DNA from: Edaphobacter aggregans
Lineage (GTDB): Bacteria; Acidobacteriota; Terriglobia; Terriglobales; Acidobacteriaceae
DNA length: 32,000 nucleotides
Direction: 5' to 3'
Assembly (NCBI RefSeq): GCF_003945235.1
Contig: NZ_RSDW01000001.1
Span: forward strand, 1,710,001 to 1,742,000
Below the pieces are notes generated by a model. The model saw only the letters and a program-made list of their open reading frames with translations. It was not told the DNA's origin and made no database searches. Positions 2,365 to 17,553 of the stretch are shown piece by piece (positions within the stretch are counted from its first letter, which is position 1; every line of letters starts with the position of its first letter). The translations under genes were made by a program, and so were the position numbers.

Positions 2365-5073
2365 ATGAACCGCTACGAAGCCGAACCGCAACAGCCGAAC
2401 CCACTCCTCCACCGCGTCGTCCGCGACGAACCCGCCTACACGACCCCGCGCGTACACATCTTCTTCAAAATTCTTCTTGTCTCTATCCCCCTCGTGCTCG
2501 TCGGCATCGTCATCGCCTTCTTCACTGCCCGCCACTGGGCCCAGCGAGCCCTGCACGACTCCCTCCCGCAGCTCGACGGCAGCATCTCCATCCCCGGCCT
2601 CTCCGCCCCCGTCACCGTCCAACGCGACACCCACGGCGTCCCCCACATCCGCGCCGCCTCGCTCGACGACCTCATCATCGCCCAGGGCTACGTCACCGCG
2701 CAGGATCGCCTCTGGCAGATGGACACCCTTCGCCGCTTCGTCTCCGGCAACATGGCCGAAGTCTTCGGCAAGAGCATGATCCCGCACGACCGCATCCAGC
2801 GAACCCTCCAGATCCAGGCCGCCGCTGACCGTGCCTATGCCGCCTTCCCGCCAGATCAGATGCGCTGGCTCGAGCTCTACGCCCGCGGCGTCAACGCCTC
2901 CATGGAGGCACAGCGCGCCCACCTCCCCCTCGAATTCCGTCTCCTCGGCTATCAACCCGCTCCCTGGACACCGCGCGACACCATCACCGTCGGCCTCGTC
3001 CTCTTCCAGGACCTCACCACCAGCTTCCCGCAAAAGCTCAACCGTGAAGCTCTCGCCGCCAAACTCTCCCCCGAACTCATCGCTGACCTCTACCCCACCG
3101 GATCCTGGCGTGACCACCCACCCACCCAGCCCACCATCGACCTAACCGCCCCCCAGGAAGAGATCCCCGACATCCCCCTCGACGAATCCCAAACCAAGCT
3201 CACAAAGCCCACTGATCCCACAAACCCGAGTGCCCAATTCATGCGGTCCCATCGCATGAGTGGGTCATTCGCGCAAAGCGCGAACCGCACTCCTTCCACC
3301 AGCCAACGACCCACCGCTACCACCCAAGACCTCCTCGCCCTCCAGCAGTCCCTAAAAGACACCCTCTGCGAAGAGTGCATCCCCGGTTCCAACAACTGGG
3401 TCGTGTCCGGAACCCACACCGCCACCGGCAAGCCGCTCCTCTCGAACGACATGCACCTCACCCACAGCGTCCCCGGCATCTGGTACCAGGCTGACCTCGA
3501 AGCACCCACCCCTACCGGTGAATTCCACGTAACCGGCGTCTCTCTTCCCGGGGTCCCCTTCATCATCGTCGGCCACAACGCCCACGTCGCCTGGGGCTTC
3601 ACCAACCTCGGAGCAGACGTACAGGACGTCTTCATCGAACACACCCGCGGCACCGGCGACACCGCCGAATACCAATCTCCCGACGGCGCCTGGCACCCCA
3701 TCCTCCATCAAAAGGAAGTCATCCACGTACGCCGCTCGCAGGACATCGTCCTCGACATCCCCACCACCCAGCACGGCAACATCATCACCCCCATCATCTC
3801 CGGCATCCTGCCCTCGGAACAGCGAGCCCTCGCCCTCCGCTGGACCATCTACGACCCAGCCAACATCTCCGCCTCACTCCTCTACATCGACTCGGCCTCT
3901 GACTGGCCCTCCTTCACCGCCGCCTTCTCCACCTTCGGAGGCCCCGCCCAAAACGTCGTCTACGCCGATGATCAAGGCCACATCGGCTACCATGCCGTAG
4001 GCAAAATCCCTCTCCGCGGCAGCCTCATCCAGCCCAGCCCCATCAGCACAGTCCCCATCGACGGCCTCGACACCACACAGGACTGGACCAGCTACATCCC
4101 CTTCGACCAGCTCCCACAATCCTTCGACCCACCCAGCGGCATCCTCGCCACCGCCAACTCCCGCGTCACCCCCGACAACTACCCCTTTCCCATTACCCCC
4201 GACTGGGGCGCCCCCTACCGCACCGAGCGCATCTGGAAGGTCCTTTCCTCGAAAGACCACCTCACCCCCGCCGACATGCTGGCCCTCCAGACCGACGTCT
4301 ACTCCGACCTCGACCATGTCATCGCCCAGCGCCTCGCCTACGCCATCGACCACTCCAGCACAAAAGACAAGCGCCTCCACCAAGCCGCCGACCTCCTCCG
4401 CAACTGGAACGGCAACGTAGACGCCGACGCCTCCGCCCCCGCTATCGTCGACGCCGCACGCGAAGCCTTCTGGCCCCTCATCCTCACGCCCAAGCTCGGT
4501 ACCGCCACCCACTACGACCCCCGCACCAGCGCTCCATCCGAACCTCTCTGGCAGCTCTACACCTGGAACGAGAAAACCTACGTCGCCGAGCAGCTCATCA
4601 TGCACACCCCCGCCCGCTGGCTCCCCTCCACCTACGCCAGCTGGGACGAGCTCCTCACCGCCGCCGTCGACCACGGCCTCCACGAAGCCCACGCCCCATC
4701 CGACCTCACCCACTGGCACTACGGCAAAGCCCACCCCATCGACATCGAACACCCCATCTACATCCTCTCGCCGATACTCCAGCGCATCGTCAGCCTTCCC
4801 ATCGGCACTGGCATCCAGCCTCAAAGCGGCGACGGAACCACCGTCAAACAAGTAGGCCGAACCTTCGGCCCCTCCGAACGCTTCACCGCCGGCCTCGCCG
4901 ACCTGGACCACTCCACCCTTAACCTGGTCCTCGGCCAATCCAGCAACCCAGCCAGCCCCTGGTTCCTCGATCAATGGCCCGCCTGGTACAAAGCCACCAC
5001 CTACCCCCTACCCTTCACCAACCCAGCCGTTGACGCCACCACCACCCACACCCTAACCCTCACACCAAACTAA
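2365..5073 (+). CDS. Penicillin acylase family protein (S45 Ntn hydrolase; possible acyl-homoserine-lactone/beta-lactam acylase), N-terminal membrane anchor
   Basis: 902-aa ORF. Alpha-subunit motif: GVPHIRAASLDDLIIAQGYVTAQDRLWQMD. Beta-subunit N-terminal nucleophile motif: GSNNWVVSG...LLSNDMHL, with the Ser codon at 3388-3390. One TM helix near the N-terminus (FFKILLVSIPLVLVGIVIAFFTA). Confidence 0.9.
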   Translation: MNRYEAEPQQPNPLLHRVVRDEPAYTTPRVHIFFKILLVSIPLVLVGIVIAFFTARHWAQRALHDSLPQLDGSISIPGLSAPVTVQRDTHGVPHIRAASLDDLIIAQGYVTAQDRLWQMDTLRRFVSGNMAEVFGKSMIPHDRIQRTLQIQAAADRAYAAFPPDQMRWLELYARGVNASMEAQRAHLPLEFRLLGYQPAPWTPRDTITVGLVLFQDLTTSFPQKLNREALAAKLSPELIADLYPTGSWRDHPPTQPTIDLTAPQEEIPDIPLDESQTKLTKPTDPTNPSAQFMRSHRMSGSFAQSANRTPSTSQRPTATTQDLLALQQSLKDTLCEECIPGSNNWVVSGTHTATGKPLLSNDMHLTHSVPGIWYQADLEAPTPTGEFHVTGVSLPGVPFIIVGHNAHVAWGFTNLGADVQDVFIEHTRGTGDTAEYQSPDGAWHPILHQKEVIHVRRSQDIVLDIPTTQHGNIITPIISGILPSEQRALALRWTIYDPANISASLLYIDSASDWPSFTAAFSTFGGPAQNVVYADDQGHIGYHAVGKIPLRGSLIQPSPISTVPIDGLDTTQDWTSYIPFDQLPQSFDPPSGILATANSRVTPDNYPFPITPDWGAPYRTERIWKVLSSKDHLTPADMLALQTDVYSDLDHVIAQRLAYAIDHSSTKDKRLHQAADLLRNWNGNVDADASAPAIVDAAREAFWPLILTPKLGTATHYDPRTSAPSEPLWQLYTWNEKTYVAEQLIMHTPARWLPSTYASWDELLTAAVDHGLHEAHAPSDLTHWHYGKAHPIDIEHPIYILSPILQRIVSLPIGTGIQPQSGDGTTVKQVGRTFGPSERFTAGLADLDHSTLNLVLGQSSNPASPWFLDQWPAWYKATTYPLPFTNPAVDATTTHTLTLTPN
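3243..3290. repeat. Intragenic palindromic repeat, short copy of the CGGGTGCCCCAT...GTGGGCATCG-hairpin-CCGC family
   Basis: Sequence: GCGGTCCCATCGCATGAGTGGGTCATTCGCGCAAAGCGCGAACCGCAC. It has a perfect 7-bp stem with a 3-nt loop, TTCGCGC-AAA-GCGCGAA, at 3268-3284. Its 3' half aligns with 6011-6040 and 16603-16629. It is read in-frame as MRSHRMSGSFAQSANRT inside the acylase. Confidence 0.7.
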
Positions 5074-5084
5074 AAATCCACCTC

Positions 5085-5185
5085 GCCGTTGCCTTGCTGT
5101 TGCAGTTCCCTTTGCTGTTGCGGTTGCCTTTGCAGTTGCCGTTGCCTCTCTTGTTGTCATCCCGTAGGGATCTGCTGTTGTCCTC
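5085..5185 (+). repeat. Degenerate (GCNGTT)n hexamer tract followed by a GTCAT-headed hairpin element
   Basis: Tract: GCCGTTGCCTTGCTGTTGCAGTT...GCGGTTGCCTTTGCAGTTGCCGTTGCC. It is followed by GTCAT (5156-5160) and the hairpin ATCCC-GTA-GGGAT (5159-5171), then CTGCTGTTG. The same architecture recurs at 8137-8216, 8326-8376 and 31176-31247. Confidence 0.75.
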
Positions 5186-5339: not shown

Positions 5340-7097
5340 ATGCCGCGCTACCGCCTACCCTTCCTCATCATCCCGATAGCCGCGCTCATCGCCATCCTTC
5401 CCCTCATCCTCCAAGGCTGCTCCTGCGGCCACGACTTCGACTTCCACCTCCTAAACTGGTTCGAAGCCGCCCACCAGTTCACCCACGGAAACCTCCACCC
5501 AACCTGGGCCTACACCCCCGCATGGAACGCCGGCGAACCCCGCTTCATCTTCTACCCACCCATCTCCTGGATCCTCGGAGCCATCCTAGGCCTCATCCTC
5601 CCCTGGACATGGACCCCCATCGCGTACACATGGCTAGCCCTCACCGCCGCAGGCTTCGCCCTCTACTATCTCGCCAAAACCTTCGCCACTCCCAACGCCG
5701 CACTGCTAGCCGCGACCTTCTACGTAGTAAACCCCTACACCCTCTTCACCGCCTACGAGCGCACCGCCTACGCCGAGCTCCTCGCCGCCGCCTGGATCCC
5801 CCTTCTCCTCCACGCCATCCTCCGCAACAAGGTCACCATCCCCCGCATCGCCATCCCCCTCGCCCTCCTCTGGCTAACCAACGCCCCCGCCGCCGTCATG
5901 GCCAGCTACACCCTAGCCCTCCTTACCCTCATCCGCATATTTGTCTTTACAAATTCGGGTGCCCCATCGGCGCCTGCGGCAGAACCTTCGGCGCGCTTTT
6001 TGCGCCTAAGGTGGGCATCGCGCGAAAGCGCGACCGCTCCCGCCAACATCGCGCTGAAAGCCACCATCGGCACCCTACTCGGTCTGGCCCTGGCTGCCTT
6101 CTACATCGTCCCCGCCGCCTATCAACGCCGCTTCGTACAAATCAACATGGCGATCCTCCCCGGCCTCCACCCACAAGACAACTTCCTCTTCCACCACACC
6201 CTCGACGCCGACCACGACCAAGTCCTCCGCACCGCCTCCATCATCGCCGTCATTCTCATCCTCCTGACCGTCACCGCCCTTCTACTCGCGCGAATCCAAA
6301 CCAAGCCCCCATCCCGCAACACCACCTTCCTCACCTCCCTCGCCATCCTCACCCTGACCATCACCCTCCTCCTCACACCCCTGAGCGCCCCCCTCTGGCA
6401 CCATCTCCCAGAACTCCGCTTCCTCCAATTCCCTTGGCGACTCCTCGCGATCCTCGCCCCCACCCTAAGCCTCACCCTGGCCCTGGCCCTCTCGCACATC
6501 AATCTCAAATCCCTCCCGACCACCCTCCTATCCATCGCCATCGCCGCATCCCTCACCTACGCCGCCTATCACTTCTTCCACCAGCCCTGCGACCTCGAAG
6601 ACACCGTAGCCGCCCGCCTCGCCCACTTCCGCTCATCAAACCCCGCCTCCGAGCCCACCGACGAGTACACCCCCATCACCGCCGACAACGACGCCCTCGC
6701 CCCCACCAATCCCCCCTACTGGCTAGCCGACAACCCCGAAGCCCCAAGCCCCACAAACACCCCCCCCGGCCCAGCCCCCACCCACCTGGCCCTCAACCCA
6801 ACCACCCCAAAAATCCTAATCCTCAACCGCCGCGACTACCCCACCTGGAGCATCACCCGAAACGGCACCCCCATCTACACCCGCCTCAGCCGCGAAGACG
6901 GCCTCATCGCCATCCCCCTCCCCGCCAGTCCCTCCGAAATCGCCATCACCCCCATCCGCACCACCGACCAACTCCTCGGCTACCTCATCACCGCCATCGC
7001 CATCCTGGCTCTCATCCTGCTCCGCCGCGCAGACAAAATCCGAGACCGCACGTCCGCTCAAAGCTCACCACGCACCGCTGATTTATCATCACCATAG
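5340..7097 (+). CDS. Large polytopic membrane protein, GT-C-like (resembles the PTPS-related / COG5617 membrane glycosyltransferase-like family)
   Basis: I take the ATG at 5340 (MPRYRLPFLIIPIAAL...) as the start, because the longer ORF from 5094 runs through the repeat elements. The 585-aa product has more than 10 TM helices. The N-terminal motif GHDFDFHLLNWFEAAHQFTHGNLHPTWAYTPAWNAGEPRFIFYPP is recalled as typical of that family. The family assignment comes from memory only. Confidence 0.6.
   Translation: MPRYRLPFLIIPIAALIAILPLILQGCSCGHDFDFHLLNWFEAAHQFTHGNLHPTWAYTPAWNAGEPRFIFYPPISWILGAILGLILPWTWTPIAYTWLALTAAGFALYYLAKTFATPNAALLAATFYVVNPYTLFTAYERTAYAELLAAAWIPLLLHAILRNKVTIPRIAIPLALLWLTNAPAAVMASYTLALLTLIRIFVFTNSGAPSAPAAEPSARFLRLRWASRESATAPANIALKATIGTLLGLALAAFYIVPAAYQRRFVQINMAILPGLHPQDNFLFHHTLDADHDQVLRTASIIAVILILLTVTALLLARIQTKPPSRNTTFLTSLAILTLTITLLLTPLSAPLWHHLPELRFLQFPWRLLAILAPTLSLTLALALSHINLKSLPTTLLSIAIAASLTYAAYHFFHQPCDLEDTVAARLAHFRSSNPASEPTDEYTPITADNDALAPTNPPYWLADNPEAPSPTNTPPGPAPTHLALNPTTPKILILNRRDYPTWSITRNGTPIYTRLSREDGLIAIPLPASPSEIAITPIRTTDQLLGYLITAIAILALILLRRADKIRDRTSAQSSPRTADLSSP
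5956..6040. repeat. Intragenic palindromic repeat, long copy of the CGGGTGCCCCAT...GTGGGCATCG-hairpin-CCGCT family
   Basis: Sequence: CGGGTGCCCCATCGGCGCC...GGCGC-GCTTTTT-GCGCC...GGTGGGCATCGCGCGAAAGCGCGACCGCTCC. It ends in the hairpin TCGCGC-GAAA-GCGCGA at 6018-6033. It shares its 5' end with 16575-16586 and its 3' end with 16603-16629 and 3261-3290. It is translated in-frame as SGAPSAPAAEPSARFLRLRWASRESATAP. Confidence 0.75.
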
Positions 7098-8111
7098 ATG
7101 GACTCCACCGTACAAAACCTGCTCCTCTCCGGCGCGCAGCTCACCGACGCAGCCCTCGAACGCCTCCTTCCATCACCCGACACCCTCCCCCACTCCATCC
7201 ATCGAGCCATGCGCCACAGCACCTTCGCTGGCGGCAAACGCCTCCGTCCGATCCTCTGCATGGAAGCCGCCCGCATGGTCGCCGGGACCGGTGAAATCCC
7301 CGAAGGCGCAGCCAACCTCGGCGCAGCCCTCGAGATGATCCACACCTACTCCCTCATCCACGACGACCTCCCCGCCCTCGACAACGATGACCTCCGCCGC
7401 GGCCAGCCCACCTGCCACGTCGTCTTCGGCGAAGCCATCGCCATCCTCGCCGGCGACGCCCTCCAAACCCTCGCCTTCCAAACCATCGCCAATCTGCCCT
7501 GCTTCGACTACAAGACCGTCCGCATTCTCCGCGAAGTCTCCGCAGCCGTCGGTACCGGCGTAGGCCCAAACAGCCCTTTACCCCCGGGCATGATCGGTGG
7601 CCAGGTCGTCGATATCGAATCAGAAGGCCAGACTCCCACCGCCGAGCTCGTCGAATCCATTCACCGCGCCAAAACCGGAGCCCTCATCACCACCAGCATC
7701 GTCTCCGGCGGCATCTTCGGCCTGCCCCACATCTACTCGTCCATGGGCTCGGGAAGCGGCCCCGAAGCCGCGGCTCAAGCGAAGGCTTTGGTCGAAGCAT
7801 CTCGGGCCAAACATGCAGCCCACGCCGACACGATCACCCGCCTCCGCACATTCGGCGAAAAAGCCGGCCTCGCCTTCCAGATCATCGACGACGTCCTCGA
7901 CATGACCCAAAGCTCCGAAGAACTAGGCAAGACCGCCGGCAAGGACACAGCCAGCATCAAAGCCACCTGGCCCGCCGTCTACGGCATCGACCAATCCCTC
8001 AAGGACGCCGAACAACTCATTGCCGACGCCTTCGAAGCCCTAACCCCCTTCGGCGAAGCCGCCACACCCCTAAAATCCCTGGCCGCCTACCTCGTCGAAC
8101 GCAAACACTAA
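7098..8111 (+). CDS. Polyprenyl diphosphate synthase family (FPP/GGPP synthase, IspA-like)
   Basis: 337-aa ORF. First Asp-rich motif: LIHDDLPALDNDDLRRG. Second Asp-rich motif: FQIIDDVLD. Also KTGAL. The ATG at 7098 directly abuts the TAG (7095-7097) of the upstream membrane protein gene. Confidence 0.9.
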   Translation: MDSTVQNLLLSGAQLTDAALERLLPSPDTLPHSIHRAMRHSTFAGGKRLRPILCMEAARMVAGTGEIPEGAANLGAALEMIHTYSLIHDDLPALDNDDLRRGQPTCHVVFGEAIAILAGDALQTLAFQTIANLPCFDYKTVRILREVSAAVGTGVGPNSPLPPGMIGGQVVDIESEGQTPTAELVESIHRAKTGALITTSIVSGGIFGLPHIYSSMGSGSGPEAAAQAKALVEASRAKHAAHADTITRLRTFGEKAGLAFQIIDDVLDMTQSSEELGKTAGKDTASIKATWPAVYGIDQSLKDAEQLIADAFEALTPFGEAATPLKSLAAYLVERKH

Positions 8112-8136
8112 CTGATTCACCCGCACTATTGCACCT

Positions 8137-8216
8137 GCCGTTGTTTTTGCTATTGCCTTTCTTGCCCGTCATCCCCGAAGAGCCTGCCCTGAGCGAAGCC
8201 GAAGGGGATCTGCTGT
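8137..8216 (+). repeat. T-rich GNNGTT-like tract plus GTCAT hairpin element (expanded-loop variant)
   Basis: Sequence: GCCGTTGTTTTTGCTATTGCCTTTCTTGCCC-GTCAT(8168-8172)CCCCGAAG[AGCCTGCCCTGAGCGAAGCC]GAAGGGGATCTGCTGTG. Apart from the bracketed insert, it matches the 8344-8370 copy. Confidence 0.75.
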
Positions 8217-8237
8217 GCTTCCCATCGCAACTCAACT

Positions 8238-8303
8238 GTCATTTCGACCGGAGCAGTTCGCGCTTTTGTGAGCTGCGAAGCTGAGAAACTCGCTTCTCTA
8301 CCC
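8238..8303 (+). repeat. GTCATTTCGACCGGAGC...GAGAAAC...TCTCTACCC element
   Basis: Sequence: GTCATTTCGACCGGAGCAGTTCGCGCTTTTGTGAGCTGCGAAGCTGAGAAACTCGCTTCTCTACCC. It aligns with 11473-11525 (CTCATTCCGACCGGAGCACGAAGCGGGGAACAGAGAAACCCATCTCTTCACCC) apart from a 20-nt internal insert. Confidence 0.75.
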
Positions 8304-8325
8304 AAGCCGCCCGCCAAGCCAAAAA

Positions 8326-8376
8326 GCCGTTGCTTTTCTTGTTGTCATCCCCGAAGGGGATCTGCTGTTGCCGTTG
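8326..8376 (+). repeat. GTCAT hairpin element, compact copy
   Basis: Sequence: GCCGTTGCTTTTCTTGTT-GTCAT(8344-8348)-CCCCGAAGGGGATCTGCTGTTGCCGTTG. It has a perfect 6-bp stem with a 3-nt loop, ATCCCC-GAA-GGGGAT, at 8347-8361. Confidence 0.8.
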
Positions 8377-8405
8377 TATGTTCTCTCTGGCCCACCCGAA
8401 AACTC

Positions 8406-8473
8406 GTCATCTAGACCGGAGCGACAAATAGTTTCATCGTTCGTCGCGTAGTGGAAAGACCCCCGCATTTTGC
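8406..8473 (+). repeat. GTCAT...ACCCCCGCATTTTGC element
   Basis: GTCATCTAGACCGGAGC (the head resembles 8238 and 11473) ...GTGGAAAGACCCCCGCATTTTGC. The 3' 15-mer ACCCCCGCATTTTGC is identical to 12396-12410. Confidence 0.7.
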
Positions 8474-8887
8474 TTTTTGTCTTTCAATAAAACGCCCAGC
8501 TTCGCCTGAACAAGCGGATAGCAGGTCAGCTTGGAGTGAATGGCTGAAGTTTCCGAAAACCCGACTTTGCGGGAACGACAGTCTGATCGGTAAATACAAG
8601 AGCGTTTTCTCATTACTAATCGGGGGAGCCAGTGCTTAATGAGTGCATTGCCCTGTTGGCGACAGTTCGCGCTTCGGAAAATCCCAGAACACTAGCGACT
8701 TAAAAGTTGGCAATCTTGCATCTCCGCCCGTAAGCCATCGTTGGGATATACTGATGCCCGTTCTTGACCGCAACGTCCAACCAATACTTTGGTATGGATC
8801 GATACGTTCGTCCAATGGGTTCGTCGTCGCGCCTCTACCGGTCTTTCCTTGAACAGTCTCTCGCTCCGACATCGAAAGGAGTACCAG

Positions 8888-9778
8888 ATGGACGGCACAA
8901 ATGGGCTGAAAGAGACTACGCGCGTGACGGCACCTGTCGCGTCGAATACGCTTAGTGTGAACGTTTTTACCGCTCCGGGAAAGGCTATGGTTGGCGAGCG
9001 GCCAAGGCCCTTCGGCGAGCCGCTCGGCTTTGATCCGGCCACGTCGACGTTGATCTTCGGCGAGCACGACGCGGTACTGGTGGACGCCATGACCACGGTG
9101 GCTGAGGCCGAGGCGCTCGCGGACTGGATTGCGCTGCATAACCGGAACCTGGAGACCATCTATATAACGCATGCGCATTTCGACCACTTCTACGGTTTGA
9201 GCGTTCTGCTCGACCGTTTCCCAGGCGCTCGGGCGATCGCAACGCCCAAGGCGGTGGAGGGCATACAGATGTATTTGTCTCCCCCAGTGCAGCAGTTAGC
9301 CCGCCGAATGTTTCCTGGGCAAGTGCCCACGAAGTTGCTTGGACCTCAGCCCTATGAGGGCGACACCTTCACGCTTGAGGGCCACGAATTGCGCATCATC
9401 GAGCAGGGTCGCACCGATTGTCCCGATTCGACGTCTCTATATGTTCCATCAATCGGCCTGATCGTCGCTGGCGACGTGGTGTACAACCAGTGCCGCATGT
9501 ACGTCGGCGACACCACCCCCGAGAGCCGACAGAATTGGATTGCGGCGCTAGACCGGTTAGCGGCGCTGAACCCGGCGGTCGTCGTCGCCGGTCATAAGAA
9601 GACTGGCGCGCCCGACTCTCCGTCGACGATCCAGGACACCAAGCGTTATCTGCAGGATTTTGATCGGCTACAGAAAACCGCGACATCCGATCAGCAGCTG
9701 TTCGATCAGATGACGGAGCTGTATCCGTATTGGGTGGCCAATCAGTCGTGGTTGATGTTCGGATTTCCGCAGTCATAA
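8888..9778 (+). CDS. MBL-fold metallo-hydrolase
   Basis: ATG at 8888 is preceded by AAGGAG (8876-8881). The metal-binding motif ITHAHFDHFYG (HxHxDH) is present, and the 296-aa length is typical. The ORF-track start at 8789 has no RBS. Confidence 0.85.
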   Translation: MDGTNGLKETTRVTAPVASNTLSVNVFTAPGKAMVGERPRPFGEPLGFDPATSTLIFGEHDAVLVDAMTTVAEAEALADWIALHNRNLETIYITHAHFDHFYGLSVLLDRFPGARAIATPKAVEGIQMYLSPPVQQLARRMFPGQVPTKLLGPQPYEGDTFTLEGHELRIIEQGRTDCPDSTSLYVPSIGLIVAGDVVYNQCRMYVGDTTPESRQNWIAALDRLAALNPAVVVAGHKKTGAPDSPSTIQDTKRYLQDFDRLQKTATSDQQLFDQMTELYPYWVANQSWLMFGFPQS

Positions 9779-9913
9779 CCCGTATCAAGCGTGACGGCCG
9801 GCGCTTGCGCGCTTTGGAAGACAGTGGGGACAGACGGAACGCTCCCCAATTTCAAAGAATGGGACGTCCCGCCGGCCCCTGGTCTTAGTTCCAATTTCAG
9901 AGAGGAGAACAAA

Positions 9914-10708
9914 ATGGCAAAAGGAAAAGTCCTGGTACTAGTCTCGAGCGGTCGCGGTTTGCCCTTGAAGGATGGCAAGGTTTATACCGGCGCTGGCTAC
10001 TACCTCAACGAACTGACGGTTCCGGTTCGCGCCCTGATGAAGGAGGGCTACGAAATCACCTTCGCCACCCCCAGAGGCAACACGCCGCAAGTGGATGTTC
10101 ATTCAGAGGTCGCCGATTTCTTCGGCGGGGACGCGGCCAGGCTTGAGGACTATATGTTATTCCGCGACGGCTTGACCGGGCTCAGAGATCCAAGCCGCAT
10201 CGCGGATGTCATCGCATCGGGCCTGGATCAATATGACGCTGTCTTCGTCCCCGGCGGCCATGGTCCGATGATCGATCTTCTCGATGATCCCAATGCCGGC
10301 ATAGTGATGAGACACTTTCACGAAACATCCAAGCCTACGGCTGTGCTCTGCCATGGCCCGATTTCACTACTCTCGGCTCTTCCGAATTCGTGGGAGTTCG
10401 TTGCCGCGCTGACTGCGGGCGATGCCGCGGGAGCGCACGCAAAGGCTCAAGGCTGGATCTATGCCGGATATAAGATGACGATCTTTTCGACGGCGGAAGA
10501 ACAGCAGCGGGAGCCGCTTGAGATTGAGGGCAAGGTTCTCTTCTACCCGGACTTCGCCTTGAAGACGGCAGGCGGTAACGTAAGTGTGCTTGCTCCATGG
10601 TCGAGCTACGTCCTTCAAGATCGCGAGTTGATCTCAGGTCAGAACCCGTTCTCCGATGAAGCGCTTCTGAAACTTCTTCTAGCTGCACTCAACGCGAAGA
10701 AAAAGTGA
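9914..10708 (+). CDS. DJ-1/PfpI family (type 1 glutamine amidotransferase-like) protein
   Basis: ATG at 9914 is preceded by GAGGAG (9902-9907). The N-terminus MAKGKVLVLVSS matches the family, as does the nucleophile elbow TAVLCHGPISLL and FVPGGHGPM. Confidence 0.85.
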   Translation: MAKGKVLVLVSSGRGLPLKDGKVYTGAGYYLNELTVPVRALMKEGYEITFATPRGNTPQVDVHSEVADFFGGDAARLEDYMLFRDGLTGLRDPSRIADVIASGLDQYDAVFVPGGHGPMIDLLDDPNAGIVMRHFHETSKPTAVLCHGPISLLSALPNSWEFVAALTAGDAAGAHAKAQGWIYAGYKMTIFSTAEEQQREPLEIEGKVLFYPDFALKTAGGNVSVLAPWSSYVLQDRELISGQNPFSDEALLKLLLAALNAKKK

Positions 10709-11082
10709 GTCGGTAAGTGGGGGCTGGTTCCGTGGTTTCGCTTGCCGATAAGTCTATCCGGATTGCTCGCCTCCCCAAGTCGTCACGTAGGTTGCCCAAA
10801 TCAATCCTGTGAAGTCGGCTTCTCGTAGCGACAATGGCAGCTCCGTAGTTCCCTCAAGACGGGGGTTATAGGCAACTTTGGTTGCCCCGGAGTTCAAACT
10901 GGCCCTCACCAACAAGCGCCAAAACTTGACAACCATACTCCCAGAACCCGCCCCGAGCAACCCCAGCCCCCGACCTCAAACCCAAGAGGTCCACACCTAA
11001 ACCACCTGAATATAATACTTTGCATACTTAGACCAGAAGGGGGGACCTCACCCCACAGCAGGACGCTATCATCAAACCAGCA

Positions 11083-12293: not shown

Positions 12294-12314
12294 CAGCCGC
12301 CCACATCTGCCCTT

Positions 12315-12372
12315 GTCGTTGCCGTTGCCCATTGCAGTTGCAGTTGCAGTTGCAGTTGCAGTTGCAGTTGCT
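12315..12372 (+). repeat. Hexanucleotide microsatellite: six perfect GCAGTT units (12334-12369) flanked by degenerate GYCGTT units
   Basis: Read directly: GTCGTTGCCGTTGCCCATT then GCAGTT x6 then GCTT. It lies in the convergent intergenic region between the methyltransferase gene and tsaE. Confidence 0.95.
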
Positions 12373-12923: not shown

Positions 12924-13024
12924 TTCCTCACAGTAGCAGTTGCGCCCTTGTGAATCGATCCTGCACTTATACTTAAGAATCAGGTTGCCTTAGATCTTGC
13001 ACGCCAACCTGCCTTGAGGAGTTC

Positions 13025-13600
13025 ATGGCCGTACTAATTGAAGCGATCAACATCAAGCGCAAGACCTTATTCGAGTTTGAAAACGCCCCATTCGCCTGTC
13101 TGGATTCGGACATCACCACCCCCACCGCTCGCGGCGGCCAGACCCTTGTTCGCCTCAAGATCCGTAACCTTCTCACTAGTGCGGTATTTGAAAAGACATT
13201 CAAGGCGAATGACAAGTTCAAGGAGCCGGACCTCCAATTGATCCCAGCCTCTTATCTCTACAGCGACGGCGATGGTTCTCACTTCCTCGATCAGGAGACC
13301 TATGAGACCCTCACCCTCGACGATGGAATGATCGGGAACGCGTTAGACTTCCTGATTGAAGGCGCATTGATTCAGCTGCACAAGTACAACGGCAATCCCA
13401 TCGGCTTACAACTGCCCATGTTTGTCGAGCTGACCGTCGCCTACGCTGAACCCGCAGCGCGCGGCGACTCCTCAAGCGGCAGCGGAACCAAACTAGCCCG
13501 GTTGGAGACTGGCCTGGAACTCCGCGTCCCTCCCTTCATCAAAGAAGGAGAAAAGGTCAAAGTAGCGACCGAAAACGGCGAGTTCTCAGGAAGAGCATAA
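13025..13600 (+). CDS. efp: Elongation factor P family protein with a YeiP/EfpL-like loop (PTARGGQ)
   Basis: 191-aa ORF with AGGAG 5 nt upstream of the ATG. EF-P three-domain length, and a C-terminal motif PPFIKEGEKVKVATENGEFSGRA. The domain I loop reads TTPTARGGQTLVRLK (Arg codon at 13130-13132) instead of the PGKG loop of canonical EF-P. Confidence 0.85.
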   Translation: MAVLIEAINIKRKTLFEFENAPFACLDSDITTPTARGGQTLVRLKIRNLLTSAVFEKTFKANDKFKEPDLQLIPASYLYSDGDGSHFLDQETYETLTLDDGMIGNALDFLIEGALIQLHKYNGNPIGLQLPMFVELTVAYAEPAARGDSSSGSGTKLARLETGLELRVPPFIKEGEKVKVATENGEFSGRA

Positions 13601-13680
13601 GCCCGCACGCGCTCGGGAGGCCCTGCACCTTTGCAGTAAATTTGAAGTGTGAGTTCAAGCACATTGAAGGTGTTCTGGTC

Positions 13681-14982
13681 ATGGCACTCACACACACATG
13701 CCGAGCCACTCTCAGCAGGAGAAGTCTATTCCTGTTGATGGCCGTTCCCATCTTGGTGTGGGGACAGACGCGACAGCCTCAACCTCCCGCACCGCATCAT
13801 GCCGTCGCCACCCGATCATCATCGCCCTCTCATACCAGCGATGACAATGTGAAAAACGACCTGGACAGCTGTCGCATTCATCAAGTGACCGGCCTTCCGG
13901 GAAGTCACCAGTTCGCCAGCGATTTTATTGAAACCATAGCCAGTGATCCCAAAGATCCTGACCTGATATGGGGTCTCACGGCGGACCTGAGCAATCAGGT
14001 TCCACCGCAGGATCAAGCCATGTACATCTCGAAATCCACCAATGGTGGCGCAACATGGACTCAGGTCGCGCGCATCGATTCCAAATACTTCGACGCGAAG
14101 ATAGGCGAAGGCCTGCGCAACGGTCTAATCGTGTCGCCCGGTGGAACCTACTTTGTGATCACAACGCAACAAGGAGCCTTCCAGGTCATTCCTCAGCCAA
14201 ATACGTCTGAGACCATGGTGAAAGCCATCGTGGGTCCTCGCGTTCCTGACACGCCTCCAAAGATGTCCATCACGAAAAAAGCAGGAGACCCCGTAAGGGC
14301 GAACGTTGTCGGAATGACATCCGACGAAAAACATCTCATCATCGGCTACGGCTACTTCGACCTCGACCCCAAGATGTTCAGCTACCACAAGGACAACGAT
14401 GGCTCATGGATCGAAGACGGGCCTCTCCCTCCACTTCCAACCGACATGGATCTTCTCTCCATGCAGTTCGATGATCCCCAAAAAACGGATCCAGGCTTCC
14501 TCTACGTTGGAACCGGCGATCAGGTCTACCTCCTTAACCGCCGCACCATGAAATGGAGTCGAATTTACGGCGTAGGCGCGGACTCCGCAATCCATGGAAT
14601 GAGCGTTGTCGGAGGCCTACACCTGGCAGCCTGTTGGGGAATCTACAACCCTTCAGGCCCAGGCACCGTACGCAGACTGATCAACGCGAGATTTCTCCTG
14701 CATCGAACGACAGATGAGACAGGTCCCAACCTTCGCGCCTACAGCATCGATGTCGACCCATCCAAACCAAACCGAGAAGTCGTAACCTCGCTCACAGGCG
14801 TGTACACAAGCGAGGACAATGGCGAAACCTGGAAAAGAATCAACGATCTTCCAGAAGAAGAATTCCGCTCCGCCCATTTCAACTCCAACGGAACCATCCT
14901 CGTCTCTGGAATCGCAGGTACGTTTCTGGTCAATCCATTTTCAAACGCCTGCACACCTCACCTTAAGGTTCGCAATAAATAG
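13681..14982 (+). CDS. Exported BNR/Asp-box repeat (sialidase-like beta-propeller) protein
   Basis: I take the ATG at 13681, giving MALTHTCRATLSRRSLFLLMAVPILVWGQ. This is a Tat-like SRRxLFL motif plus a hydrophobic core. Asp-box motifs SKSTNGGATW and SEDNGETW are present. The function is unknown. Confidence 0.65.
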   Translation: MALTHTCRATLSRRSLFLLMAVPILVWGQTRQPQPPAPHHAVATRSSSPSHTSDDNVKNDLDSCRIHQVTGLPGSHQFASDFIETIASDPKDPDLIWGLTADLSNQVPPQDQAMYISKSTNGGATWTQVARIDSKYFDAKIGEGLRNGLIVSPGGTYFVITTQQGAFQVIPQPNTSETMVKAIVGPRVPDTPPKMSITKKAGDPVRANVVGMTSDEKHLIIGYGYFDLDPKMFSYHKDNDGSWIEDGPLPPLPTDMDLLSMQFDDPQKTDPGFLYVGTGDQVYLLNRRTMKWSRIYGVGADSAIHGMSVVGGLHLAACWGIYNPSGPGTVRRLINARFLLHRTTDETGPNLRAYSIDVDPSKPNREVVTSLTGVYTSEDNGETWKRINDLPEEEFRSAHFNSNGTILVSGIAGTFLVNPFSNACTPHLKVRNK

Positions 14983-15051
14983 CTCCGCATCGCTCGCCTT
15001 TTGAAGGAAGCATGAGCGCTAAGCCCTCACTCTGAATAGCGAGAATGCCCT

Positions 15052-15732
15052 TCAAATCTGGTGGATGGCCTCCAAATAATCCTGGACGCCAGTGCAGACG
15101 ATCTGGACGCCAATGCACAGCAGGATAAACGCCGAAAGCCGCAACACGACCATCGTTCCCGATGCGCCAAGCAAGCGCTCTGCGGCATTAGCGTAGCGAT
15201 AGCAGATGTAAATGCTGATGCAAACCAGCGCGATGCCGACAAACGATGCAATCAAAACTCTGGGCGAAAGAAACGACGATGCGTGCAGCTCCGCAGGCAG
15301 GTGCGCGCCGAGCGTAATCGCAACCGAGATGGAGCCCGGGCCAACCGTGAGCGGCATCGTGTAGGGATAAAAAGCCCGATCAAGAACGCTGGAATCCTGC
15401 GCGCTGTTCGAGCGAGTGCTGGTCGAGTCCCGCGACAGCAGTGACCATCCCGTTACAGCCACGACAAGTCCTCCGCCGATCTGGACGGCGTAGATGGAGA
15501 TGCCGAAGAAGGTAAGAATTTTGACTCCCCAGAGCAGCGAGCCAATCAACAGAAAGAAACAGTAGGTGGCAATTTTTCGTGCAAGCGCGCGATGCACCGC
15601 CGGCTCGAGTCCGCTGAAAACATTGAGGAGAACCGCAGCGGCGGCCAGTGGATTAACGACAGGAAAAAGCGCTGCGACCACGAGAATCGTGGCCTCGATG
15701 ACGGTCGATGCACCATTATGAAGATCAATCAC
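15052..15732 (-). CDS. MarC family (UPF0056/NAAT) integral membrane protein
   Basis: 226-aa ORF with a GTG start and six predicted TM segments. N-terminal motif: LVVAALFPVVNPLAAAAVLL. Confidence 0.75.
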   Translation of the reverse strand: MIDLHNGASTVIEATILVVAALFPVVNPLAAAAVLLNVFSGLEPAVHRALARKIATYCFFLLIGSLLWGVKILTFFGISIYAVQIGGGLVVAVTGWSLLSRDSTSTRSNSAQDSSVLDRAFYPYTMPLTVGPGSISVAITLGAHLPAELHASSFLSPRVLIASFVGIALVCISIYICYRYANAAERLLGASGTMVVLRLSAFILLCIGVQIVCTGVQDYLEAIHQI

Positions 15733-15888
15733 CGGCTGAGACTTCCTCGTTTATCTTGCGAGGCAACAAAGGGAAACAAAGAATGAAGCACTTGGTGAGC
15801 AAATATACATCTTAGCGGTGGGAGCGACGCAAAAGCTTTCTGCAAGGACGCTTGTAAGCCACTGCTCACGCTTCGGTGGAGCGACCTA

Positions 15889-17553
15889 TTAATTACTGGT
15901 CCCCCGCAACCCACAAATCCAATCCGCCCCACTCTCATCTCTTACCCGATATCGAAACGCATCTGACAAATGTGTAACCGTATCGGTTGCAAGTACCGTA
16001 TGCTCATCCATCGCATGAGCCGCAAAGTCCCCCGCCAGCCCATGCAGATAAACCGCAGCCTCCACAGCCCGCTTCACATCGTCAGGAAACTGAGCCAGCA
16101 TCCCCGCCACAATCCCCGTCAAAATATCCCCACTCCCACCCTTAGCCATCGAAGGATTCCCCGTAGTATTCACCGCAATCGACCCATCCGGATGCGCCAC
16201 CAGCGTCCTCCATCCCTTCAACACCAGCGTCAGCTTATGCTCCGTAGCAAACCGCCGAGCCAATCCCACCCGATCCGCCTCAACCTCTTTCACCGTCATC
16301 CCAACCAACCGAGCCATCTCCCCCGGATGCGGCGTCAGCACCATCACCCTACCCGACCCATCCAGCAAATCCGCCTTCCGCTCAAAAGCATTCAACGCAT
16401 CCGCATCAATCACCATCGGAACCGTAGTCTTAGCCACCAGCCGTCGAGCAAACTCCGAAGCATCCCCCACCGTCCCCAACCCCGGCCCCACCGCCACCAC
16501 GTTAATCCCCTTCATCAACCCCTCAAACCGCTCCCCCTCTAAATTCCCAAGCGAAACCCCATCAGCAACGAAACCGGGTGCCCCATATCTCGATTCTGAG
16601 ATGTGGGCATCGTCCGAAGGACGACCGCTTTCCTCCAAAGGAGCCACCATCAACTCCGGAGCCACCCCCGCAACAATCCCCACCACCCGCTCCGGAACCG
16701 CCGCAGTCACCAACCCCGCCCCCGTCCTCAACGCCGCCAGCGAAGCCATCGCCGGAGCCCCAGCCTTTCCCCAACTCCCCCCCACCACCAGAACATGCCC
16801 AAACTTGCCTTTATTGGAATTCACTCCACGCGCCTTCTCCGCCACCACCTTCGAAGCTCCCGTCCACGTCAACGCCGAAGTAGAAACCACCGCCCCATCA
16901 GGAGACCCAATCCCCGCCACCACCACCGGCCCAAACGTCCCACGCGTCAGATGCCCAAACACATGAGCCATCTTCGGAGCGGTAAACGTCACAACCGCAT
17001 CCGCCCGATACGCCCCCTCCACCGTCTGCTCCATCGAGTCCGAGTCCCACCCCGAAGGCACATCGACCGCAACCACCGGCACACTTAACCCCTCGACCAT
17101 CTGCCGCAGCCCAGCCGCCAGCCCGCGTAGCGGAGGCTTGAACCCAGTCCCCACCACAGCATCCACCAATAACTCCGCATCCCCCAGAACATCGCTGCAA
17201 GCCTTAAGCCCAACCTCATCCACCACTTCGCGCATTGCCACCCCCGGAGCCTCATCACGAAGTCGCCTTAAAGCCGCCGCAGCCTCACCCTTCACCTCAC
17301 CCATCCGCCCGAGCAGCACCACCCGCACCGTCCAGCCCGCCCCCGCCAGCACCCGAGCCGCAACAAACCCGTCTCCCCCATTGTTCCCCTTCCCACAAAG
17401 CACCGTCACCCGCTCCGACGCCCAATACTGCCGTAAGCAGAACCCAACCACCGCCCCACCAGCCGCCTCCATCAAATCCCCCAGCGGAACCCCAAACTCT
17501 TCAACCGTCCGCCGATCCGCCGCCCCCATCTCCGCTGCCGTCAGAATCTTCAT
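15889..17553 (-). CDS. nnr: Bifunctional NAD(P)H-hydrate repair enzyme Nnr (epimerase / ADP-dependent dehydratase)
   Basis: 554-aa ORF. YjeF_N motifs: MKILTAAEM...CGKGNNGGDGFVAAR. C-terminal carbohydrate-kinase motifs: KGKFGHVLVVGGS, VGPGLG, GGSGDILTGIVAG. Confidence 0.9.
   Translation of the reverse strand: MKILTAAEMGAADRRTVEEFGVPLGDLMEAAGGAVVGFCLRQYWASERVTVLCGKGNNGGDGFVAARVLAGAGWTVRVVLLGRMGEVKGEAAAALRRLRDEAPGVAMREVVDEVGLKACSDVLGDAELLVDAVVGTGFKPPLRGLAAGLRQMVEGLSVPVVAVDVPSGWDSDSMEQTVEGAYRADAVVTFTAPKMAHVFGHLTRGTFGPVVVAGIGSPDGAVVSTSALTWTGASKVVAEKARGVNSNKGKFGHVLVVGGSWGKAGAPAMASLAALRTGAGLVTAAVPERVVGIVAGVAPELMVAPLEESGRPSDDAHISESRYGAPGFVADGVSLGNLEGERFEGLMKGINVVAVGPGLGTVGDASEFARRLVAKTTVPMVIDADALNAFERKADLLDGSGRVMVLTPHPGEMARLVGMTVKEVEADRVGLARRFATEHKLTLVLKGWRTLVAHPDGSIAVNTTGNPSMAKGGSGDILTGIVAGMLAQFPDDVKRAVEAAVYLHGLAGDFAAHAMDEHTVLATDTVTHLSDAFRYRVRDESGADWICGLRGTSN
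16574..16629. repeat. Intragenic palindromic repeat of the CGGGTGCCCCAT...GTGGGCATCG-hairpin-CCGCT family, inside nnr (minus-strand gene)
   Basis: Plus-strand sequence: CCGGGTGCCCCATATCTCGATTCTGAGATGTGGGCATCGTCCGAAGGACGACCGCT. It has an imperfect hairpin GCCCCATATCTC / GAGATGTGGGC and a perfect hairpin TCGTCC-GAA-GGACGA at 16610-16624. It is translated on the minus strand as GRPSDDAHISESRYGAPGF. Confidence 0.75.

Follow-up and report, generated by a model that had tools for sequence, protein, structure and literature searches.

Among the closest described relatives of the repeat considered here are the repetitive extragenic palindromic (REP) sequences and REPIN doublets, which with REP-associated tyrosine transposase (RAYT) genes form the REPtrons of Enterobacteria and Pseudomonas; the IS200/IS605 insertion sequences (IS608, ISDra2) with their miniatures; and the Rickettsia palindromic elements (RPE). 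The present analysis concerns a stretch of 32,000 nucleotides (nt) of Edaphobacter aggregans (contig NZ_RSDW01000001.1, positions 1,710,001 to 1,742,000), hereafter the window, which represents E. aggregans throughout this study, and in it a palindromic repeat, copy 2, that lies inside the gene of a membrane protein. Our analysis revealed that copy 2 is a genuine member of a real family of small, two-hairpin mobile repeats that abounds among the Acidobacteriaceae of soil. Very probably this is a non-autonomous, REP-like family of Acidobacteriaceae and the cognate repeat of the RAYT whose gene it flanks, with copy 2 as one of its members.

Comparison with REPtrons revealed several common traits: short hairpin repeats (here hundreds per genome by extrapolation), stems held by compensatory change, genome-specific subfamilies, copies flanking an apparently single-copy, vertically inherited Y1-HUH gene whose product matches the RAYT equivalog and resembles structure 4ER8, and, as far as crude gene calls show, a mostly extragenic location, often right after stop codons. 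Unlike the single palindrome of 20-40 nt found in REPtrons, the acidobacterial unit combines two hairpins in a fixed arrangement and measures 52-85 nt. Its copies are mostly singletons or direct arrays, those beside the RAYT gene are direct and on the strand of the gene, its polarity with respect to composition skew is almost absolute and a sizeable minority of copies is translated. By its copy number, its covariation and its place on either side of a RAYT gene, the family is a REP/RAYT system of Acidobacteria whose architecture and strand polarity are atypical. The traits shared with IS200/IS605 elements and their miniatures are subterminal hairpins on one strand, no detected target-site duplication, replication-coupled orientation and a Y1-HUH enzyme; the acidobacterial system differs from them in an enzyme that is RAYT-like, apparently single-copy and syntenic, in flanks that are both a complete unit and in two hairpins that are dissimilar. 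If the G-rich strand is the leading strand, its gene-sense strand also lies on the strand opposite to that reported for IS608. RPE resemble the family in occurring in-frame in coding genes, in one preferred frame, at surface or loop sites and with retention across species. This likeness is behavioural only. The taxon is different, no relation in sequence is evident, and the acidobacterial family is mostly intergenic, with a candidate transposase.

Y1 transposase genes with flanking repeats were reported from Terriglobus, Granulicella and Acidobacterium as 'TIRYT/TIRtron' (Di Nocera et al. 2013, PMC3733652), and class 3 TnpA-Y1 proteins were associated with 'atypical secondary structures' (Quentin et al. 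2018, PMC6006769); the available text of these surveys also mentions hairpin repeats with about 600 copies in Solibacter. In that text the repeats are flanking inverted ones with a GGGGWSAS motif, or have a CnGA foot, and the available parts do not describe the two-hairpin unit, its polarity or its in-frame copies. The class 3 motifs given there (NHVH, Y....Q) differ from those of the acidobacterial enzyme (DHVH, WQ, YIHRNP), which are the motifs of class 2 (RAYT).

The repeat family and the RAYT gene that it flanks

Side-by-side reading of the three loci in the window revealed a common architecture, in which a conserved CGGGTGCCCCAT is followed by a variable hairpin 1, then (G)TGGGCATCG, a short hairpin 2 and ACCGC. 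A helix P1 (CGG/CCG) closes the unit, and the long hairpin 1 consists of a conserved base and a variable tip. The stem of hairpin 2 varies in a compensatory way among the window copies (CGCGC/GCGCG, CGTCC/GGACG). Default repeat finding overlooked the family, its copies differing by indels, and the copies were recovered through direct reading and pattern search. As an earlier reading of the letters alone (the sequence-only reading) had noticed, the 5' 12-mer CGGGTGCCCCAT of copy 2 recurs exactly at 16575-16586; two or more matches were found in 2 of 100 shuffles. The same reading held that the 3' 30 nt are shared with both other copies. This is only loosely true, because the 3' 31-mer does not recur even when three mismatches are allowed; homology extends over the 3' halves, which diverge by compensatory stem changes and indels.

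A family pattern for the whole unit, scanned across one genome per bacterial species, matched at least 120 loci, nearly all from Acidobacteriaceae (Edaphobacter, Granulicella, Tunturibacter, Terriglobus and many metagenome-assembled genomes). Across Acidobacteriaceae the unit is 52-85 nt long. Matches outside the family Acidobacteriaceae (loci L019, L082 and L117) lack the hairpins and were put down to chance or bin contamination. Using nhmmer, 191 copies were identified in about 0.95 Mb, comprising the at least 120 loci listed and the window. The tip of hairpin 1 divides them into subtypes A (52-54 nt; tip ATCTC-GATTCT-GAGAT), B1 (GGCGCGC-TTTTT-GCGCC), B2 (GCGACGG-CTTCAT-CGTCGC) and C, of which window copy 1 is a degenerate example. 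Genome-specific subfamilies were found, with all 12 copies in Granulicella S156 being B-type and all 13 in LAG bin31 being A-type.

Covariation was analysed on an alignment of 124 copies, with 500 shuffles and slid pairing partners as controls. In the proposed structure 91.7% of the cells are paired, compared with 85.1% in the shuffles (none of the 500 reaches the observed value) and 30-42% with slid partners; double-change cells number 147, against 41 in the shuffles. Both stems carry compensatory changes, and a single hairpin-2 pair (alignment columns 85/95) occurs as CG in 41 copies, UA in 30, GC in 18 and AU in 8. The CGGGTGCCCCAT module is nearly invariant in this alignment, where the search pattern itself prescribed GGTGCCCCA. 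When run on the window with filters off, a covariance model of the 124 members found exactly three copies, all on the + strand, the next score being 6.6 bits. On that strand all three fold more stably than shuffled controls (z = -5.3, -2.5 and -2.8).

Curated RNA families were considered as well. Rfam 15, including Acido-1 (RF01686), gave no window match at gathering thresholds, and permissive thresholds on 16520-16680 gave chance matches only (E above 1); Acido-1 and other curated RNA families were rejected on these grounds. Carriage by phages was likewise rejected, since a viral collection of 2.9 million contigs contained one match only. At L074 (1185-2359), L042 (1730-2145) and L072, 3-5 units form a direct array at intervals of about 140-170 nt, and REPIN-like inverted neighbour pairs about 80 nt apart are present at L007 (6920-7159) and L096 (4198-4438).

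A motif scan of the loci revealed an open reading frame of 154 amino acids at L050, matching the NCBIfam model REP_Tyr_transpos with 105 bits (cutoff 80) as well as Pfam Y1_Tnp. Against the IS200 transposase model the protein scores 36 bits, under the cutoff of 55, and its best match among solved structures is E. coli TnpA-REP (4ER8). This reading frame has a full unit on each side, upstream at a distance of about 80 nt and downstream at 29 nt, both on the gene's strand. The flanks of five RAYT homologs with 60-78% identity were scanned with the covariance model. At all five close loci (L050, L124, L125, L126 and L127/L128) full units are present on both sides, on the gene's strand and in direct orientation. 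The RAYT gene lies on the C-rich strand, as do its flanking repeats. It adjoins ffh (SRP54) in three genomes (L124 2001-2462, L125 2001-2462 and L127 2001-2465) and occurs on 1-7 contigs per cluster; judged from these sequences, the gene therefore behaves as single-copy and vertically inherited. No tnpB was seen. At L124 and L125 the interval from the upstream unit to the RAYT start codon contains an additional, inverted hairpin-1 copy.

Copy 2 and the history of its insertion

The sequence-only reading described copy 2 as an 85-nt in-frame insertion at 5956-6040 in a loop of the membrane protein. The sequence at this position reads as it reported. Its bounds did not stand: 85 is not a multiple of three, and conservation continues beyond the segment on both sides, for about 10 nt at the 5' end and about 7 nt at the 3' end, so that these are not the bounds of the insertion. 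Two hairpins were also said to be extra in this copy. Both are present, but neither is extra to the family, as TCGCGC-GAAA-GCGCGA is its universal second hairpin and GGCGC-N7-GCGCC is the ordinary hairpin-1 tip of a common subtype (for example L007, 6932-6993). What is truly extra is the 18-nt expansion listed in Table 1, which is absent from the orthologous copy at L123 (83% identical) and from all other B1-type copies, and which appears as a gap of six amino acids in the alignment with protein P0002.

Table 1. Features of the window and of copy 2 (positions in the 32,000-nt window).
Feature	Position	Strand	Description
Copy 1	3217-3294	+	Degenerate subtype C; cmsearch 36.3 bits; sense, in-frame in the penicillin-amidase gene
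Copy 2	5946-6043	+	Subtype B1 plus 18 nt; cmsearch 64.4 bits, E=2e-17; in-frame, residues 203-235
Copy 3	16565-16634	+	Near-consensus subtype A; cmsearch 81.3 bits; antisense within nnr, translated as ESGRPSDDAHISESRYGAPGFV
Host gene of copy 1	2365-5073	+	Penicillin amidase family; Pfam PF01804, E=6e-193
Host gene of copy 2	5340-7097	+	Polytopic membrane protein of 585 amino acids, PF10131 (PTPS_related)/YfhO-like
Host gene of copy 3	15889-17553	-	Bifunctional NAD(P)H-hydrate repair enzyme Nnr; Pfam YjeF_N and Carb_kinase
Copy 2, conserved 5' module CGGGTGCCCCAT	5956-5967	+	5' half of P1 and of the hairpin-1 base; exact repeat at 16575-16586
Copy 2, lineage-specific expansion CGGCGCCTGCGGCAGAAC	5968-5985	+	18 nt, six extra codons, outside the family consensus
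Copy 2, hairpin-1 variable tip (B1), CTTCGGCGCGC-TTTTT-GCGCCTAAGG	5986-6011	+	Folds as a hairpin; shared with L007, L015, L093 and others
Copy 2, 3' module	6012-6037	+	TGGGCATCG (3' half of hairpin-1 base), hairpin 2, ACCGC closing P1
Copy 2, hairpin 2 (TCGCGC GAAA GCGCGA)	6018-6033	+	

The host protein of copy 2 is 100% identical to an Edaphobacter aggregans hypothetical protein, and its homologs carry PF10131/PF09586. As the sequence-only reading had proposed, the copy 2 peptide FTNSGAPSAPAAEPSARFLRLRWASRESATAPAN lies between two hydrophobic helices, placed at residues 182-205 and 234-270 (H182-205 and H234-270) in the AlphaFold model, whose mean predicted local distance difference test (pLDDT) value is 64. 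Residues 205-232 of that model have a pLDDT below 50 and form an unstructured stretch; WASRESATAPANIALK is an example peptide from residues 203-235. On this model, copy 2 would amount to about 30 extra, unstructured amino acids in a loop of the membrane protein. A search with the 33-amino-acid peptide among 1.84 billion protein representatives returned one match, a chance one to a fibronectin-like repeat protein, and was uninformative. The local richness in G that had been pointed out was confirmed, the G content of copy 2 being 34%, whereas the gene averages 14.7% and its other 85-nt windows reach 23.5% at most.

Analysis of orthologs revealed both empty and filled alleles. In a protein alignment of 22 orthologs, the membrane proteins P0003, P0004 and P0007 (75-79% identical) lack the segment, while many orthologs from Edaphobacter and Granulicella carry a unit in the same loop, of differing subtypes (SARTLRLRWASRES, YLDSEIWASRES and SFASSAKGGVSRES); several also bear a unit in a second loop. 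The same DNA element is present in unrelated genes, antisense too, and mostly between genes. Together with the covarying stems, these observations bear out the proposal that copy 2 is a secondary insertion of a palindromic repeat tolerated in-frame. Its distribution among the ortholog sequences indicates that the insertion is old and common to several species, not recent.

The orthologs of nnr present a similar picture: a clade at 81% identity or above carries copy 3, and more distant orthologs are about 60 nt short there. Two of them, in regions that correspond to window 16505-16680, differ from the window in structured ways. The ortholog at L130 (1174-1320) has a clean loss of 27 nt, exactly hairpin 1, between short direct repeats. 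The one at L131 (1174-1340) has paired stem changes (ATCTC/GAGAT to ACATC/GATGT and GTCC/GGAC to TGC/GCA). These allele differences hint at in-place homogenisation or at repeated re-insertion at one site. The paired changes at L131 match variants common elsewhere in the family.

Ortholog alignment, which had been expected to define the boundaries and any target-site duplication, yielded the alleles described above but not the junctions, as the loops at empty sites are too diverged to place them. No target-site duplication was detected; the longest substring shared between flanks has a mean of 5.15 nt, compared with 4.83 nt for mismatched flanks. The 5' flank shows a loose consensus, CCACA(A/G)A(A/T)CC.

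Copy 1 also has an orthologous counterpart, a degenerate unit at the same site of the amidase gene (L122, 974-1046). It is placed about 30 codons upstream of an SNNW motif (3388-3399), which in penicillin acylases marks the catalytic N-terminal serine of the beta subunit. Copy 1 may therefore lie within the spacer peptide that is removed at maturation, a naturally permissive site.

Genomic location, reading frames and strand polarity

The sequence-only reading had labelled the family intragenic and proposed a genome-wide census of intragenic and intergenic copies. The census was made on the at least 120 related loci and the window, and the label did not survive it, as about 70% of the copies are outside called genes. 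Genes were called with a crude, self-trained procedure whose calls span 61% of the bases; by these calls, 71% of copies lie outside genes compared with 36% of random positions, and 14% are confidently genic compared with 41% of random positions. On these calls the family is mainly intergenic, and the window, with all three of its copies in genes, is atypical of it. Convergent gaps are the most enriched intergenic class, by neighbour counts that are small and caller-dependent. Genic copies occur in both sense and antisense.

Copy 2 had been described as stop-free in more than one frame, which is the case: it is open in three of six frames. The six-frame check of the consensus sequences found five open frames for subtype A, four for B1 and B2 and three for C. 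Among the sense genic copies, 16 of 17 are in the ...PGAP... phase, and among the antisense genic copies four of six are in the ...ESGR.S.DAH.SES.YGAP... phase. We interpret this use of a single phase as the outcome of filtering for peptides that can be tolerated.

In 185 of the 191 copies the C-rich strand is the one that reads CGGGTGCCCCAT, and where the absolute skew exceeds 0.1 the polarity is 171 to 1. The skew itself is tied to the strand and not to gene direction: third codon positions contain 66% C and 13% G in genes of the + strand, and 54% G, 27% T and 12% C in genes of the - strand, with called genes divided 300 to 262 between the strands. GC skew marks the replication strand; the G-rich strand is assumed here to be the leading one, as complete-chromosome positions gave too few loci per chromosome for an assignment.

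Several further observations on composition were made. Across the window (1-32000) the 1-kb GC skew on the + strand ranges from -0.2 to -0.55, whatever the gene direction, and the median absolute skew in the related loci (L001-L120) is about 0.26. Such values are far above what is usual for bacteria. Literature searches found neither this repeat nor the extreme skew described. Patches of low skew, with 53-59% G+C, occur at 8001-11000 (-0.09 to +0.02) and 13001-16000 (-0.01 to -0.16) and may be recent acquisitions or inversions. Degenerate tracts of TGC(A/C)GT-type hexamers (TGCAGTTGCAGTTGCAGTTGCA and relatives) are present at 5095-5146, past the stop codon of the amidase gene and ahead of the start codon of the membrane-protein gene, and at 12308-12366.

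Origin and maintenance of the repeat

By analogy with TnpA-REP and with the TnpA of IS200/IS605, the RAYT, an HUH-Y1 enzyme, would recognise the hairpins that single-stranded DNA forms at the replication fork, and would move or copy the unit without target-site duplication. Mobilisation by the RAYT, its action at the fork and the choice of active strand are all inferred from this analogy. Action on single strands at the fork would account for the near-uniform polarity with respect to the replication strands and for the missing duplication. Most copies would persist between genes, with a minority landing in permissive coding sites (loops, linkers or a spacer peptide); such genic copies would be kept where the frame is stop-free and the peptide harmless and flexible, almost always in the ...PGAP... 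frame. Copy 2 would be an old survivor in the loop between two predicted transmembrane helices, shared with orthologs in Edaphobacter and Granulicella, which later gained 18 nt in this lineage.

It is unlikely that the repeat is instead a structured RNA selected by the host (a 3'-untranslated-region stabiliser, an attenuator or a translation-coupled regulator), spread and conserved through its RNA function and not by ongoing transposition. RNA roles of this kind have been shown for some E. coli REPs, and three observations suit such a role here. Wobble pairs fit the top strand only, the ratio of GT/TG to AC/CA being 15:1 for P1, 8:1 for hairpin 2 and 108:0 for columns 23/73, against a mutation bias that should favour A.C. 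Among the intergenic copies with called neighbours, a co-oriented gene ends on the 5' side in 38 of 47 (baseline 57%), and the copies often start 3-30 nt past its stop codon. Orthologous genic copies, moreover, retain both hairpins through compensatory changes. However, the polarity tracks replication-strand skew instead of the direction of genes, sense copies downstream of genes on the G-rich strand are very rare (the opposite polarity is found in 6 of the 191 copies), antisense copies occur inside genes and no Rfam family matches. An RNA function would also leave the tight association with a transposase gene unexplained, and the context counts that speak for it rest on the crude gene caller.

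The polarity, the top-strand wobbles, the position just behind stop codons of genes on the C-rich strand (presumably the lagging one) and the exchange of hairpin variants at orthologous sites could also be combined in another way, to which we likewise give a low probability: the element, more than a selfish repeat, would be a feature of the genome that is oriented with replication and that its RAYT maintains, for example a structure that marks strands or manages conflicts for head-on transcription units, or one whose resident copies the RAYT rewrites in place in a conversion-like manner. If true, rewriting in place would keep hairpins intact even inside coding genes.

The units could be miniature derivatives of IS200/IS605 elements (palindrome-associated transposable elements), the hairpins being left and right ends served by a multicopy insertion-sequence transposase and not by a domesticated RAYT, but this is distinctly improbable. 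Two hairpins in a fixed order on one strand, direct and not inverted units beside a Y1 gene, the absence of target-site duplication and a near-absolute polarity, as documented for IS608 and ISDra2 in the available text of PMC6006769, would all be expected of such derivatives. The protein speaks against them, lying above the RAYT equivalog cutoff and below that for IS200, with TnpA-REP as its nearest structural relative. In addition, each flank bears a whole two-hairpin unit instead of a single hairpin, the gene keeps its place next to ffh in three genomes and is found on few contigs per cluster, and tnpB was not seen.

Still less probable is an origin of the polarity in differential loss, whereby units inserted both ways would be deleted by slippage where the strand with the stabler, G.T-containing hairpins is on the lagging template. 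The exact deletion of hairpin 1 between short direct repeats at L130 is the kind of event required, and in two of the three window copies the fold of the top strand is slightly more stable than that of the complement (-26.5 versus -24.1 and -47.5 versus -44.0 kcal/mol). These stability differences are small, and nil for copy 1; a bias of 171:1 would demand extreme selectivity, and the RAYT gene and its flanking copies share the same polarity. Finally, the idea that the copy 2 peptide is a protein-level motif selected for membrane-protein function, with the nucleotide likeness secondary, is the least probable of all: one frame is used in nearly all sense genic copies and the peptide is retained in many orthologs, but most copies are intergenic, the same DNA is read antisense in nnr, base pairing and not residues is conserved, some orthologs lack the segment, the structure model shows it as a disordered loop and the search of 1.84 billion representatives gave a single chance match.

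Several points weigh against a REP-like family mobilised by its RAYT. The link to the RAYT is drawn from sequences of related genomes, E. aggregans being represented by the window. The most distant homolog, L129 (60% identity), is flanked by weak partial matches only. In three filled-versus-empty comparisons the exact ends and the target sequence could not be placed, the flanking loops being too diverged. Neither a transposition event nor an excision product was observed, nor was any recent presence/absence polymorphism among strains, and all three window copies are old and common to other species. The G.T wobbles are conserved on that strand of the unit which coincides with the C-rich strand; with the G-rich strand taken as leading, this wobble strand is not the one expected to be single-stranded as template for lagging-strand synthesis. 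Either the enzyme's active strand is the complement, the wobbles stemming from RNA-level selection on sense transcripts, or the mechanism is unlike that of IS608. The GTAG/CGTC tag of REPs is absent at either foot of the unit, whose 5' end is CGGGTG (CGGGTGCCCCAT); GGTG as an analogue of the tag is conjecture. The inverted doublets of REPIN or bacterial interspersed mosaic elements (BIME) are also missing, with three inverted pairs among the 191 copies (L007, L096 and L035).

With a REP-like family and its RAYT as the most probable explanation, Acidobacteriaceae, a dominant and poorly studied group of soil bacteria, gain a defined repeat family and a candidate cognate transposase. The family accounts for the recurrent segments 'PGAPS...RLRWASRESATAPAH', 'PGAPYLDSE.WAS' and 'ESGR.S.DAH.SES.YGAP' in acidobacterial proteins, which inflate loops, disturb alignments and domain models and could pass for motifs; the covariance model could be used for annotating the elements and for masking them in comparative work. 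The family unites traits that are usually separate, namely association with a RAYT, a polarity like that of IS200/IS605 and in-frame translation like that of the Rickettsia elements, and through this combination it could serve as a natural system for the study of Y1 strand choice at the replication fork.

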